From: Alphaproteobacteria bacterium
GTDB taxonomy: Bacteria; Pseudomonadota; Alphaproteobacteria; UBA828
Direction of reading: 5' to 3'
DNA length: 64,000 bases
Assembly: GCA_965221125.1 (NCBI GenBank)
Contig: CBDCRW010000004.1
Span: 1,056,776-1,120,775, forward strand
Shown here: positions 24,687 to 54,593 of the stretch, piece after piece
Layout of the letters: each line of letters starts with the position of its first letter
Numbering within the stretch: the first letter of the stretch is position 1
Translations under genes and position numbers: made by a program
The notes under the pieces: generated by a model
Database searches by the model: none
Told to the model about the DNA's origin: nothing
The model's input: the letters and a program-made list of their open reading frames with translations, nothing else

Positions 24687-27002
24687 CTATCCCCCGCTTC
24701 CGCTGCGCAGCCGTCCCGTGAGGCGGCCGCTGCCGGCACGCGCGATGCCGCCGGTGACGGCGCCCGCAAGACGGCCCGCGCCGTCGTCCGTGCCTCCGGA
24801 GCGCCCGCCGATCCACTCCATGACCGCCGAAGGCAGCAGGTCGATCAGCTTGAAGGCGCCGTTCATCAGCGCGTAGCAGAGCATCACGTAGAGGGTCAGC
24901 ATCGCGAGGAAGCCGATCGGCCCGAGACCGTCCGAGGCGCCGGCGTCCCTGAGCTGCGGCAGCCAGATGGCGTTCAGCAGGCCGACGGCGGCGAGGAACA
25001 CGAAGTAGCCGAGGATGAGGCCGAACAGCATGAGCGGCGGGCGCAGGATCAGCCCCGGCAGGAACAGCCACCCCTGCCGTGTCGCCGCAACCATGAGTCC
25101 CCGGTCCTGGCCGCGCGTGACGTGGGCGGCGGCGAACACGGTGACGGCGAGCACCGCCTCCACCACGTTCACCAGCCAGCCGAAGACGCCGAAGAGGAAG
25201 CGGATGAAGGGCAGCGCGGGAAGCACGAACGCGAGCACCGCGCCCGCGATCAGCATGAGTCCGAGGATGGTGGAGACGAATCCGTCGGTAACGCGCCAGA
25301 CGGACTCGAAGGCATCGAGACCCTTGCCGAAGAAGGGGATGGATTCCAGGAGACCCGAACCCACGGCGACGCCGGAGATGGCGCCGATGGCCCCCAGGGC
25401 GGAGGCGATCAGGTCGTGCCCAAGACCCGCGAGATCGGCGATGGGATTGCCGCTGTCGGCGATCACCACTGCATCGAGGTCGATGAACTCGAAAAGGCCG
25501 GCGACCAACCCGCCATCGCCGCTCCCTGCAGCGGGCAGTGTGCCCGTCACGCCTGCCCCTGCGGCAAAGAACACGGGTTGCCAGGTGCGCGAGGAGGCGA
25601 GTGCGGCGAGCAGGCCCTTCACCGCCGCGGCCGCGGGCGGCGACCACTCCTCGAGGCTCGGCAGGGGCAGCGCCGCGTCGGGGACGTTGTGGGCCGCGGC
25701 CTGGAAGAGGCCGGTGCGGGACGCGATGGTGTTGAAGAAGCCGGCGGCGGCGAGCCACGACGAGCCTGCAGCGTCCTCGGCGACGGCACGCTCCAGGGCG
25801 AGGCGCTCCTCGGAGGCGGCGCGGCTCAACGCATCGTCAAGGACGGACTCATAGGACAGCGCGAGGCCCCGCGCATTCATGGCGGCCTCGACGTCCGGCA
25901 GCGGCTGGCCGTGCATGGGCGAGCCCGGCAGGTAGCGGTCTCCCAGCTCGGCGGCCAGACCGCGAATGGCGGGGAACAGGCCCTCCATGGCCCTGCGGTG
26001 GCCGTGCGCCGCGATCCCCCTGGAGCCCTCGCCGTCAAGGCCGTCGAAGCGCACCGCGCCGCAGAGGTCGCGGGGCATGCCGCGCCCGTCGCCGTCGTAG
26101 CGCAGCAGCAGCGCGCCGTCCGCCCGCTCCTCGTCCACCTCTATGTAAGGGTCGTCGCCGATGCGGCGCGCATTGGCGTTGGCGACATGCGTGCAAGTCT
26201 CGGCGAGCAGCACCCGCGATATGGCGGAGCGCCAGGCTGCGGCCTTGGGTCTGGGCGCGATGGGATCGCCCCTGCCCAGCGCCTGCTCGGAGAAGGGGGT
26301 CCATACGGCGCCCGCGAAGTCGCCGCCGAGGGTCGCCAGGCCGACCACGGCGTGCTGCGCGCCGTTCATGCCGCCCGGCAGCGGGGCCATGAGGGCCACC
26401 GCCGCCACGATGCGCACGATCTCCCAGGCCCCGAACCCCCAGCGGCCCGTGCGGGCGGTGTCGACGGTCCCTGCCACGGTGTGCCAGAGCAGGAGGAAGC
26501 CGGCCAGCACCAGCACGCCGCCGTTGAAGACAAAGAGCATATCGCCGAGCACGGCGTGGCGAGCCACGTCCATGTCGCTCAGGAAGGAGAGCAGGTCGCG
26601 GGTGGCGTTGTCCGCAGTCGCGAATATGTCCGGATCGATGGTCTGGGCGTCCGCAGTACCGGAGACCAGGCCGGAAGCGCCGAGGGACACGAAGGCGAGG
26701 CCGGAAGCCGAAAGTGCGGCGCCCAGAACAGCGCGCAGGCGCCGTTCCCGCTCCATAAGACGCTTCCAGCGCCAGCCACCGCCAACCGCAGGGGAACGCC
26801 CCGGTCCAGGGGAACGCCCCGGTCCAGGGGAACGCCCCGGTCCAGGGGAACGCCCCGGTCCAGGGGAACGCCCCGGTCCAGGGGAACTCCCATCCGAGAG
26901 TGCGCGCACGCTATGCCCCAGGCGCCGGCCCGCCTGGCGCATGTCGGCCAGGCAGCGACCGAGCTCGGGCGCGAAGAGGAAGCGCAGGAGACGCATGCTC
27001 AT
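24687..27002 (-). CDS. dotA: DotA/TraY family inner-membrane T4BSS protein
   Basis: FNGGVL...GTVDTARTG, W..VRIV...LMAP, WLAAAGFF, LPALPFI and LRPPLMLFG. ATGA coupling at 27002; an internal start near 26756 is possible. Confidence 0.88.
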   Translation of the reverse strand: MSMRLLRFLFAPELGRCLADMRQAGRRLGHSVRALSDGSSPGPGRSPGPGRSPGPGRSPGPGRSPGPGRSPAVGGGWRWKRLMERERRLRAVLGAALSASGLAFVSLGASGLVSGTADAQTIDPDIFATADNATRDLLSFLSDMDVARHAVLGDMLFVFNGGVLVLAGFLLLWHTVAGTVDTARTGRWGFGAWEIVRIVAAVALMAPLPGGMNGAQHAVVGLATLGGDFAGAVWTPFSEQALGRGDPIAPRPKAAAWRSAISRVLLAETCTHVANANARRIGDDPYIEVDEERADGALLLRYDGDGRGMPRDLCGAVRFDGLDGEGSRGIAAHGHRRAMEGLFPAIRGLAAELGDRYLPGSPMHGQPLPDVEAAMNARGLALSYESVLDDALSRAASEERLALERAVAEDAAGSSWLAAAGFFNTIASRTGLFQAAAHNVPDAALPLPSLEEWSPPAAAAVKGLLAALASSRTWQPVFFAAGAGVTGTLPAAGSGDGGLVAGLFEFIDLDAVVIADSGNPIADLAGLGHDLIASALGAIGAISGVAVGSGLLESIPFFGKGLDAFESVWRVTDGFVSTILGLMLIAGAVLAFVLPALPFIRFLFGVFGWLVNVVEAVLAVTVFAAAHVTRGQDRGLMVAATRQGWLFLPGLILRPPLMLFGLILGYFVFLAAVGLLNAIWLPQLRDAGASDGLGPIGFLAMLTLYVMLCYALMNGAFKLIDLLPSAVMEWIGGRSGGTDDGAGRLAGAVTGGIARAGSGRLTGRLRSGSGG
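26789..26891. repeat. 18-bp family A array (CAGGGGAACGCCCCGGTC x5 plus partial) in the 5' region of dotA
   Basis: Perfect tandem units; read as GRSPGP. Confidence 0.97.
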
Positions 27003-53088: not shown

Positions 53089-54593
53089 GATCCGGATCCT
53101 CCGTCGTTGGCCGTGTGGTTGACCGCGCTGCCGGTGGTTTCACCCGCAGCACCGCCGATCGGGTCGCTGGCCGCGCCTTCCAGCTTTGCCGGTGGCTGCG
53201 CTACTGGCTGCGCCACCGACTGCGGCGGTGACTGAGTCAGTGACTCAGTCACCGGCCGAACCGCCTGTTCGAAGCGTTCGCGCGGCATGGAGACCGGCGA
53301 CACCCGCCGCCCTTCGAGCCGCCACTCGCCGGCTCCGTCCCGCACGAGCCGCACGAGCTCGAGTCCGGGTACGGCCGCGACGGCATCTGCGAGGGGGAAG
53401 GGCACACGCCCGGTCGTGACGCGCAACTCAATGCCGTCGCCCTGCATGGGGTATTCGATGCGGGTTCCGCGCGCGCCGAAGTGGCGGTCCACCGCCTCAC
53501 GGAAGTCGAGCAGGGAGGGAGGAGCAGCCTCTCCAAGCCGCAGCACGGGCGCGACCGGCGTAACCGCCCAGGCCCGGTCCCCCGTGACCGACGCCGCGTA
53601 CCAGTCCGAGAGGTGCGTTTCGGCGATGCGCCGGTGCAGGGGCTCAGGACGACCCGAACCGAGCCGCCAGCGCACCGTGAGCACAGCCCGGTCCTCGAGC
53701 TCCGGCCGCACGCCGATGAGCGCGATGTCTGCGAAGCGGCCCTCGCAGGAGATGCGCTCCGTGCGCCATGCCGGCAGGTACGGCGGATACGCCATGAGCG
53801 CCTGCCGGCAGCCCGCGAGCAGCGCGCCCGCATCCAGTATCGCCATCACCGGCGGAACCACGGGCGCCTGCTCCGCCTCCGCCGCCTCCTCGGGTCCGGC
53901 GATCAAGTCCCAGATCGTGCCGCGCTGCGTCCACACGAAGGCGCCGCCCGCCACCATGACGGCCAGCGCGAGGAAGCGCCCCACCTTCGGCAGGCCGAGC
54001 ATCGAGAGCGGCGCCGCCGCAAGGCGCATGGCAGGATCGTCCACCAGCGACGCGGGGTCGATCTCGCTCACGGGGAAACTCCCTGGTACAGGGGAACTCC
54101 CCGCTCCCGCGTCCTTCACCAGCCCCGGCGTTGCATGGAGCGCCCAGCCCACGGAGGAACTCTCCGGTACCGTGGAACTCACGGGTACGGTGGAACTCAC
54201 CGCTTCGGAGGAACCCCCCGGTCCAGGGGAACTGTTCGACTCGCCGCGAGCGCGCTCGAAGGCCGCGGGCGCGGACTCCCGGTCGGCGAACACCTCGTCC
54301 CCGTCGGCAAGGAAGGCGCCGTCCCTGGCCTTCAGCAGAGCAAGGCGCCCGTCGTCCGCCTCCACCAGCGCCATCCAGGTGGGGACCGCGATGCGCGCCT
54401 GCAGCGACGCCGCGAGGCTCGGGCAGCCCTTCGGGCTCTCCTCGTCCGCCGCGTAGCCGGTCTGCCCGCCCCAGTGAACGTGCCAGGGCCGCTTGAAGGC
54501 CCGCGCGTTCCGCGCCACAGATGCTGCGCCGCCCCGCTCCAGCCAGTAGAGCCCCGCCGCAAAGCGCCGCCCGCCTATCGTCAGCACACTCAC
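53085..54593 (-). CDS. pilO: PilO2 (type IVb pilus accessory protein)
   Basis: RFAAGLYW N-terminus, central TM and PAWRTERISC. Confidence 0.8.
   Translation of the reverse strand: MSVLTIGGRRFAAGLYWLERGGAASVARNARAFKRPWHVHWGGQTGYAADEESPKGCPSLAASLQARIAVPTWMALVEADDGRLALLKARDGAFLADGDEVFADRESAPAAFERARGESNSSPGPGGSSEAVSSTVPVSSTVPESSSVGWALHATPGLVKDAGAGSSPVPGSFPVSEIDPASLVDDPAMRLAAAPLSMLGLPKVGRFLALAVMVAGGAFVWTQRGTIWDLIAGPEEAAEAEQAPVVPPVMAILDAGALLAGCRQALMAYPPYLPAWRTERISCEGRFADIALIGVRPELEDRAVLTVRWRLGSGRPEPLHRRIAETHLSDWYAASVTGDRAWAVTPVAPVLRLGEAAPPSLLDFREAVDRHFGARGTRIEYPMQGDGIELRVTTGRVPFPLADAVAAVPGLELVRLVRDGAGEWRLEGRRVSPVSMPRERFEQAVRPVTESLTQSPPQSVAQPVAQPPAKLEGAASDPIGGAAGETTGSAVNHTANDGGSGS
54071..54240. repeat. 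18-bp family A, two clusters (54071-54106, 54152-54240) in pilO
   Basis: GGAACTC-cored units with 18-bp period. Confidence 0.85.

Follow-up and report, generated by a model that had tools for sequence, protein, structure and literature searches.

The stretch of DNA analysed here (the window, 64,000 nucleotides of the alphaproteobacterial assembly GCA_965221125.1) comprises the final 64 kb of contig C4 in a genome (G000) of 4.58 Mb, 69% G+C and seven contigs, which is 92% complete. It holds a conjugative element (W), and the subject of this work is a set of very short DNA repeats lying within its conjugation genes. From Pfam matches and translations, these genes were identified as an I-type (Dot/Icm-like, IncI-like) conjugation or type IV secretion block together with a thin pilus. 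Every gene between approximately 21.4 and 57.0 kb is on the minus strand and the operon genes overlap by their stop and start codons. Products of the cluster include a TrwB-type coupling protein, a single-stranded DNA-binding protein (SSB), DotH/IcmK, a TraI-like lipoprotein, DotD and a DotB-like ATPase that matches the solved Legionella DotB (6geb) at 3.4e-55, as well as a prepilin peptidase fused to a TcpQ domain, PilV-like proteins with Shufflon_N, PilR-like, PilQ-like ATPase and secretin-like proteins. The right flank, from 59.4 kb, consists of the host genes RNase PH, Ham1 and SecA.

The repeats are real and strongly non-random. An 18-bp unit, CAGGGGAACKCCCYGGTM (family A), was matched 32 times in the window with two mismatches or fewer, against 0.01 matches expected from 100 shuffles; 31 of these fall within 26789-54106, the remaining one being an isolated two-mismatch match at 13675. 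Tandem Repeats Finder reported period-18 arrays of 1.9-7.9 copies at the loci where an initial annotation of this DNA had described such a unit, and 10 of the 15 period-18 arrays scoring at least 75 in the whole genome sit in this 28-kb stretch. That annotation had listed 14 loci, with one to eight tandem units in both orientations in about 12 transfer genes, and the description stands in most respects. Eleven of the loci were matched directly (26789, 28246, 38563, 40879, 41179, 41760, 43087, 45232, 49053, 52995, 54071), 37232 was confirmed as an exact 18-bp presence/absence difference against a close relative, the last locus proved to be a degenerate 4.6-copy array (54151-54233), and at 36018 there are two decayed units where relatives carry three to six good ones. 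Copies of family A per locus range from 1 to 7.9 in the window (9.1 in the related element G005a), both orientations were seen in the pattern search of the window, and the family occupies 12 genes plus one 5' leader. A second 18-bp family (family B, mRNA sense CACCCCTKCGGGTGG plus three variable bases) had been overlooked at five sites (33337, 34747, 38924, 39646 and 39937). Families A and B together reach 15 genes, with 18 of the 19 window arrays lying within open reading frames (ORFs), and copies are absent from the host genes and from the cargo on the left, as had been stated. Family C, a 15-bp unit (GGAGACACTCGTGCC), fills a second cluster of this type in the same genome (G000b, on contig C7).

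Elements in related genomes are referred to by G numbers. L001 is a 95%-identical relative, and X1, X5 and X10 are public runs, of which contigs and not reads were compared. For each of ten further copies of the cluster approximately 40 kb was retrieved; genes in these relatives were called by our own ORF and BLAST procedure, and some N-terminal extensions among them are probably spurious. Five elements (G016, G047, G000b, G003a and G008b) lie outside the clade that carries families A and B. The features of the window, with what relatives carry at the same places, are as follows.

21443..57009, minus strand: the I-type conjugation / type IV secretion and thin-pilus block, host of the repeats.
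26789..26891: family A, plus-strand unit CAGGGGAACGCCCCGGTC, 5.7 copies with 98% matches, giving (GRSPGP)n within the N-terminal part of the DotA-like ORF 24687-27002(-); translated, since the peptide upstream of the array is conserved in relatives; orthologues carry 0-4 units here.
28246..28390: family A, 7.9 copies with 80% matches, including CAAGGG...CCTTGG variants, 5' leader or intergenic, 27-171 nt upstream of the start at 28219 of ORF 26999-28219(-), whose orthologues begin at MSTEAM; arrays are found at the equivalent place in G015, G018 and G011a.
33337..33375: family B, 2.2 copies, PLRAAT frame, N-terminus of the small membrane protein 32999-33391(-); one unit more in L001, 0-5 units in orthologues.
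34747..34808: family B reversed, 2.4 copies, GVSTRR frame, adjoining one degenerate family A unit (34791-34808) in the TrbI/DotG-like ORF 33925-35121(-); shared by W and G015 and by no other element.
36018..36035: decayed family A units QDDPLHQGDPLW, just past the signal peptide of DotH/IcmK 35118-36161(-); about six units in G005a and about three in G008a, none in G018, G016, G047, G000b, G003a and G008b.
37232..37249: single family A unit, mRNA sense GACAAGGGAACTCCTTGG, DKGTPW, in ORF 36795-37850(-); the exact 18 bp present in W and G011a and absent in L001/G015 and five other elements, with a unit in opposite orientation at a nearly identical place in G018.
38563..38634: family A, 4 copies, DRGVPL/YQGVPL frame, N-terminal extension of the IcmT-like ORF 38311-38658(-); missing from orthologues in G005a, G008a, G016 and G047.
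38924..38958: family B, 1.9 copies, TPSGGR, a loop in the C-terminal domain of the DotB-like ATPase 38674-39933(-); corresponds to a 12-residue gap in solved DotB (6geb).
39646..39722: family B, 4.3 copies, GTPPGG, in the DotB-like ATPase between its N- and C-terminal domains, a site falling between the two matched domains of 6geb; one unit fewer in L001 and in the X5 and X10 contigs.
39937..39998: family B, 3.4 copies, DTPAGG, C-terminal tail of the TraI-like protein 39930-40802(-), ending 4 nt before the start codon of the DotB-like gene.
40868..40911: family A, 2.2 copies, unit on the minus strand, forming the C-terminal tail of DotD 40799-41464(-) in the GDHPGP frame; relatives carry 1 to about 7 units and five elements none.
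41179..41232: family A, 2.9 copies, PGSSPV frame, in the DotD linker from the lipobox region to the DotD domain; one unit fewer in L001 and in the X5 and X10 contigs (an 18-letter difference at 41182).
41747..41831: family A, about 4 copies, unit on the minus strand, GERPGT/GELPGA, linker between Peptidase_A24 and TcpQ in ORF 41461-42816(-).
43087..43104: one family A unit, TGERPG, in ORF 42803-43219(-) beyond the signal peptide; two units in L001, about ten in G005a.
45232..45249: family A unit with a degenerate neighbour, PGRSPV, in the PilV-like ORF 44483-45730(-); 2, 1 or 0 units in orthologues by codon alignment.
49053..49070: one family A unit, read in the NRAFPC frame, 8 nt into the PilQ-like ORF 47426-49078(-); the exact 18 bp present in W and G018, absent in L001/G015, G011a and G005a.
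52995..53048: family A, 3 copies, unit on the minus strand, GELPGT, in ORF 51220-53088(-), where it precedes the hydrophobic core of the signal peptide; G005a has a single unit, and G011a, G018, G008a and four others have no unit.
54071..54233: two family A arrays, 54071-54106 (2 units) and 54151-54233 (4.6 degenerate units), in ORF 53085-54593(-).

The loci had been described as in frame, which is correct in general but not for 28246-28390; this array lies upstream of the start codon common to orthologues and so is untranslated. It had also been pointed out that the unit is open in all six frames. This is true yet unremarkable, as 57% of random 18-mers of the same composition, and 65% of native ones (24001-57000), are likewise open when placed in tandem. 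The proposal that copies lie at protein termini or linkers is upheld by alignments of orthologues and by solved DotB: all intragenic units fall at gaps, loops, linkers or termini of the orthologues. In protein alignments 17 array sites correspond to gaps in repeat-free orthologues with conserved blocks on both sides, an example in the DotB-like ATPase being RIFD[...]ATGEGILRSG.

Arrays were found to gain and lose whole units. The initial annotation had proposed that orthologues be compared for indels of 18n bp and for empty sites, and both were found. Between W and L001 there are 942 mismatches over 19,070 aligned bases and 15 indels, of which six are exactly 18 bp, each amounting to one A or B unit; two of the six are single units of W with none in L001 (49053-49070 and 37232-37249). 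The X1 contigs, which cover the arrays at 40868, 41179 and 41747, do not differ from W. Whole units also appear at new sites without target-site duplication, codon alignments giving clean filled and empty alleles in which the flanks are not duplicated. In the homologue of the gene at 33402, an 18-nt unit occurs in G000b and G003a, eight other elements being empty at that site and nine being unfilled in all. There is in addition a nested case, in which a 15-nt family C unit lies within a family A unit in G000b and its G003a orthologue; without the C insert, the score of the A unit is 26.8, the maximum being 29. Since these arrays, with whole-unit differences, recur in independent assemblies and in contigs of public runs, they are not assembly artefacts, a concern raised at the outset.

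Using the TraI-like protein as query, the same gene set was found in four public contigs labelled as metagenome-assembled Alphaproteobacteria or Rhodospirillales, and matches were obtained in 14 of 61 related genomes; for the 20 other genomes of the genus the figure was 12. Profile counts for families A/B/C were 38/13/0 in W, 26/13/0 in G015, 24/11/0 in G011a, 42/9/1 in G018, 34/7/0 in G005a and 27/18/1 in G008a, and 6/0/38 in G003a, 9/0/33 in G008b, 2/0/9 in G000b and 0/0/0 in both G016 and G047. A tree of the DotO-like ATPase places the A/B elements in one clade (100/100) and the C elements in another (100/100), G016 being sister to the A/B clade and G047 to the C clade. These two elements have no unit in 40 kb each. 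The secretion machine therefore exists without repeats and, as both clades have a repeat-free sister, either two lineages acquired the repeats or two losses took place. The element G000b (contig C7 of G000, approximately 88-105 kb; L009, L027) is a second, divergent copy of the secretion system, with a TraI-like protein 56% identical, and contains family C plus only two family A units despite sharing a genome with W.

The units affect only conjugative-element genes. A profile scan of the whole genome, which had been suggested as a check, located 38 of 62 family A matches and 13 of 15 family B matches in the window cluster and 9 of 14 family C matches in the second cluster on C7. Other family A arrays and copies at a shared site are found in a TrwC-type relaxase gene of contig C5, with two arrays breaking into places that are continuous in the window's relaxase, and in four primase-like paralogues (also termed Toprim-like, by sequence resemblance only) which have 1, 2, 2 and about 5 units at one common site. 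Nine further family A matches are lone near-matches and were outside the context check. Of the 21 genomes of the genus, 17 had the tandem pattern; the 400 other genomes scanned from the class (308 genera) yielded none, and a reversed-pattern control gave zero in every genome. In a scan of metagenomes by pattern only, 16 contigs were retrieved, and 16 of 16 have homologues of this secretion gene set.

The statement that conservation is at the level of DNA and not of peptide was borne out by frame use, by the distribution of variability and by codon composition. Five of the six classes of frame and orientation are read directly in the window. A census of 208 family A units across elements gave all six (69, 45, 36, 25, 8 and 6 units, with 19 outside assigned ORFs), though this count is less certain, being automated, with ORF assignment partly unreliable and a few frames, such as RRHSCR, probably spurious. 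Positions 2, 10, 14 and 18 of the unit are variable in every frame class, whereas mean variability by codon position is 0.56, 0.47 and 0.49, that is, without difference, within the range of variability that the profile threshold allows to be measured. At codon positions 1/2/3 the G+C content is 0.77/0.78/0.55 within the arrays and 0.74/0.56/0.86 elsewhere in these genes. The arrays thus do not resemble native coding sequence and do not use the preferred codons of the genome, and on these three grounds the inherited entity is the DNA unit and not the peptide.

The units are also dyad-symmetric. Among unique family A units, positions 2 and 14 form A:T 58 times, G:C 23, A/C 25 and G/T 5 (Fisher p = 2e-6), and positions 3 and 13 form G:C 101 times, A:T 6, A/C 6 and G/T 3. 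Paired variants are found in families B and C as well (CGCCC/GGGCG, CACTC/GAGTG, and CAC-TC-GTG to CCC-TC-GGG). Such figures overstate independence because the copies are related to one another. The A/C mismatch class is approximately ten times as common as G/T regardless of how the unit faces relative to the gene, with A/C in 18 of the 82 units that lie in sense orientation and 33 of the 126 in antisense, and G/T in 2 and 3, respectively. An mRNA-specific structure finds no support in these mismatch classes, which are independent of orientation to the genes. A mismatch bias on the unit's own strand is more in keeping with a polar entity than with a structure in mRNA.

The explanation that we favour, with modest confidence, is that the families of 18-, 18- and 15-nt dyad-symmetric units behave as non-autonomous repeats that are copied in and prone to slippage, and that are restricted to conjugation genes in a single alphaproteobacterial genus. 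New copies would be copies of an existing unit, produced by ectopic template switching, gene conversion or a strand-transfer enzyme, and probably during the single-stranded phase of conjugative replication. In a gene-dense operon only families that are a multiple of three may persist and amplify, and the survival of a unit would require a place that tolerates a 3n insert; the spacer peptides, rich in Gly/Pro/Ser/Thr, would be a tolerated by-product, and the secretion machine itself would have no need of the units. The initial annotation had offered a micro-mobile repeat as one of its readings, and this fits the unit-exact indels, the filled and empty sites, the nested unit and the conservation at DNA level.

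Several observations weigh against mobile repeats of this kind. No target motif or duplication is visible at the insertion sites, at which a check for target-site preference had been suggested. Unambiguous single-unit insertions are few (49053, 37232, the 33402 homologue of G000b/G003a, the N-terminus of the 51220 gene and the nested unit), and at some single-unit sites gain is indistinguishable from precise loss. Arrays are close to start codons more often than random placement would give, 10 of 19 lying within 130 nt of a start codon by our own calls against 4.65 expected (P = 0.007). Units at orthologous sites are still recognisable where synonymous sites are only 63-76% identical, which would fit a function, but both copies had to pass the profile for this comparison and the excess conservation is therefore only a hint. 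A hairpin was rejected as the common cause. Relative to shuffles, family A arrays fold with z from -4.0 to +0.07 (RNA down to -4.0, DNA down to -3.1) and the perfect 5.7-copy array folds no better than its shuffles; family B arrays are near theirs (z -0.1 to -1.2) and family C arrays fold worse (z = +1.6 and +2.0). The mini-hairpin first noted in the unit is thus borne out as a covarying dyad in family A but is no general explanation. Finally, no mobilising enzyme was identified in the genome. An HUH transposase of the RAYT/IS200 type (Y1_Tnp, PF01797), for which a search had been suggested, gave 0 matches in the 92% complete G000, the control search being positive in 6 of 14 known genomes, and no unit-like inverted repeat was found in the five non-coding stretches scanned as candidate regions for the origin of transfer (oriT). 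A reverse transcriptase had been proposed alongside the transposase; there are two RVT_1 matches in G000 (C2:67259-67861 and C7:119507-120013, the latter approximately 15 kb beyond the second secretion cluster), and no link to the units was established, linkage having been considered by position only.

A function in cis is an alternative that we regard as possible though unlikely. Here the units would be selected nucleic-acid elements, namely structured motifs in mRNA or motifs of the transferred single strand acting in stability, coupling, pausing, priming or protection, and would lie in coding sequence because the operon is nearly without spacers. The paired changes by which families A and B keep their dyad are consistent with this, as are those family A arrays that out-fold their shuffles in RNA and DNA, the excess of arrays near start codons (that in the TraI tail stops 4 nt before the DotB-like start) and the persistence of units at orthologous sites despite 24-37% synonymous change, with the ascertainment caveat given above. 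However, orientation is mixed, 45 family A arrays being sense and 61 antisense over all sites and elements with each orthologous array counted, the tolerated mismatch follows the strand of the unit and not that of the mRNA, and family C is without folding. Sister elements carry zero units, copy number is free to vary between close relatives, and the termini at which arrays accumulate are also the places that best tolerate insertions.

A doubtful idea is that the units are mobile DNA smaller than any so far described, in the form of 15-18-nt cassettes moved or copied on single-stranded DNA by a conjugation enzyme; the best candidate would be the two-tyrosine HUH relaxase, whose activity falls in the transfer phase. 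From such an enzyme it would follow that units occur only in conjugative-element genes, that the mismatch is tied to a strand and that families are rarely exchanged between co-resident elements. TrwC-type relaxase genes are present in this element and next to other arrays. This type of relaxase is described as an HUH enzyme of conjugative elements that integrates single-stranded DNA into a target reducible to 17 bp, both catalytic tyrosines being needed (Agundez et al. 2012, PMC3264647). By analogy the relaxase is a candidate copying enzyme for the units, its strand transfer being a mechanistic lead only, as no likeness of the units to a nic site or oriT was found in the non-coding stretches scanned. 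In addition, the window's own relaxase gene is interrupted. This gene (15065-21464) is split in two pieces. The N-terminal part is an open frame at 20775-21464(-) that ends just short of the His-rich motif and the remainder runs from 17578 down to 15065(-); the approximately 3.2 kb between them contain helix-turn-helix genes and a large serine recombinase (18866-20941, plus strand).

Still less probable is the other reading initially put forward, in which the arrays are clustered binding sites in double-stranded DNA for a protein of the element or host (a silencer, partition or clamp-loading function) that coats or regulates the operon. The cores are dyad-symmetric, including CAC-TC-GTG of family C, which is too tight for a hairpin, the tandem arrays resemble iterons, and the sites are confined to the transfer genes of several co-resident elements. 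Iterons and operator arrays stand at an origin or promoter; of the 19 arrays here, 18 are inside genes. The reading would, however, require three unrelated families of sites, and the filled and empty sites, the nested unit and the unit-sized polymorphism would be left unexplained. Symmetric compensatory changes with a strand-polar mismatch bias are not expected of a protein site, no candidate protein was found, and the results do not strengthen this reading.

Ordinary coding minisatellites, generated by local slippage, selected as flexible Gly/Pro linkers and alike only through convergence of GC-rich codons, are very improbable: the commonest frames (PGSSPV/PGRSPG and GERPGT) are plausible linkers, every site is a loop, linker or terminus, and slippage is clearly at work in the whole-unit indels of L001 (6 of 15) and in the X5/X10 contigs, but one 18-mer is read in five frame classes in the window and six in the census plus a leader, third-position G+C is 0.55 against 0.86, variability tracks the position in the unit and not in the codon, single units occur at sites without an earlier copy, and one unit family common to 12 genes and a leader in both orientations is not a set of locally unrelated repeats.

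In full-text searches of the literature, in-frame repeats of unit size in conjugation genes were not found described, and the units of these marine bacteria appear to be among the smallest mobile repeats so far observed within protein-coding genes. Closest in concept are the small dispersed repeats (SDRs) of Nostocaceae, which are very small and mobile. Cyanobacterial SDRs, ascribed to Elhai and colleagues in 2008, are reportedly 21-27 nt in length, insert within genes and nest. SDRs are described as known from Nostocaceae only, with HIP1 sites as possible insertion points of SDR5 (PMC5861425). SDRs and the present units alike are very short repeats that behave as mobile DNA and lack an enzyme of their own, and the units studied here likewise stand at non-homologous sites with filled and empty alleles and include a nested unit. 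Unlike SDRs, they are of 15-18 nt, all families are a multiple of three and run head to tail in up to about nine copies, and they occur in conjugation genes rather than chromosome-wide, in an alphaproteobacterial genus.

Rickettsia palindromic elements (RPEs) are palindromic repeats of approximately 100-150 bp that lie in frame in protein genes, where they are tolerated at non-critical places; they are not tandemly amplified and are scattered across housekeeping genes. The present arrays are similar in being in frame in conserved protein genes at tolerated sites, as judged from orthologue gaps and solved DotB, but as RPEs are defined by a single copy per site, units of 15-18 bp that are tandem and present in transfer genes only are distinct from them. 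Repetitive extragenic palindromic sequences (REPs) are short GC-rich palindromes of 20-40 bp, often clustered, which are extragenic, genome-wide and paired with REP-associated tyrosine transposases (RAYTs), and are presumed to move through the action of an HUH enzyme on hairpins of single-stranded DNA. REPs are sorted by a tag at one end, GTAG and CGTC being examples (PMC3733652). Unlike REPs and the bacterial interspersed mosaic elements (BIMEs) built of them, the window arrays are intragenic in 18 of 19 cases, no terminal tag was seen in the family A consensus, Y1_Tnp matches are lacking from the 92% complete G000, and in place of hundreds of copies across the chromosome 38 of 62 family A matches are in one 28-kb cluster. 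Palindromic amphipathic repeat coding elements (PARCELs), as outlined in a 2010 source, are tandem intragenic repeats with dyad-symmetric DNA, associated with mobile elements and horizontally spread; their defining feature is a conserved amphipathic protein motif of 25 residues, and the ORFs concerned have no known function (PMC2996958). Tandem intragenic repeats with dyad-symmetric DNA are found here too, yet in contrast to PARCELs the unit encodes five or six residues, the peptide depends on the frame and the insertions are in known, conserved proteins.

If the favoured explanation is correct, DNA units of 15-18 nt can spread through protein-coding genes, and a large membrane machine has been reshaped at a dozen or more places without being broken, only in conjugative elements. 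The sites would form a natural map of tolerated insertion points in Dot/Icm-like secretion proteins, and the arrays could serve as fast in-frame markers for following these elements in sponge and marine communities. They would also offer a tractable case of how very small repeats reach new sites, a question that is open for REPs and SDRs, and the link with single-stranded conjugation is a testable idea on mutation processes specific to mobile DNA.

A number of other features were seen in and around the cluster. The SSB gene (28850-29935) encodes approximately 360 residues, comprising a normal SSB domain and an Ala/Asp/Gly/Thr-rich tail of approximately 250 residues. From approximately 29.9 to 42.4 kb the comparison with G018 (L003, L044, L045) is a mosaic, with identity of approximately 0.9-0.98 on either side and 0.6-0.88 inside, and whole modules have therefore been exchanged between elements. 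The arrays were considered as recombination linkers between such modules, which was not supported, the W/G018 switches being approximately 0.6-1.5 kb from the nearest arrays (300-nt resolution).

Other short repeats occur in the window and elsewhere in the genome. A different, palindrome-like 15-bp tandem repeat, GAACTGTCTCAGACA x2.1 (LSETV LSETV), lies inside DotH/IcmK at 35690-35720; it has 3.7 copies in G011a, and a related 2.8-copy unit is found in G016. In the overlap of the PilR-like and PilQ-like genes (47710-47717) an X5 contig has 18 extra letters where the window has no unit. Outside the conjugation genes there are two 18-bp hairpin-like arrays on contig C2 of G000. That at C2:130713-130766 (CCAGGGGTAGCCCTGCGC x3.1) begins within the final three codons of a metabolic-looking gene and continues past the stop codon, and that at C2:144232-144285 (CGGACCTGCGTCCGGCGA x3) forms the GDGPAS tail of an ABC-ATPase-like ORF overlapping the next gene. 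In the secretin-like gene an 18-bp duplication at 55188-55228, GTGTCCACGGCACCTCCG x2.3 (TGGAVD TGGAVD), is unlike families A and B; G018 has part of it, other elements lack it, and it resembles an ordinary product of local slippage.

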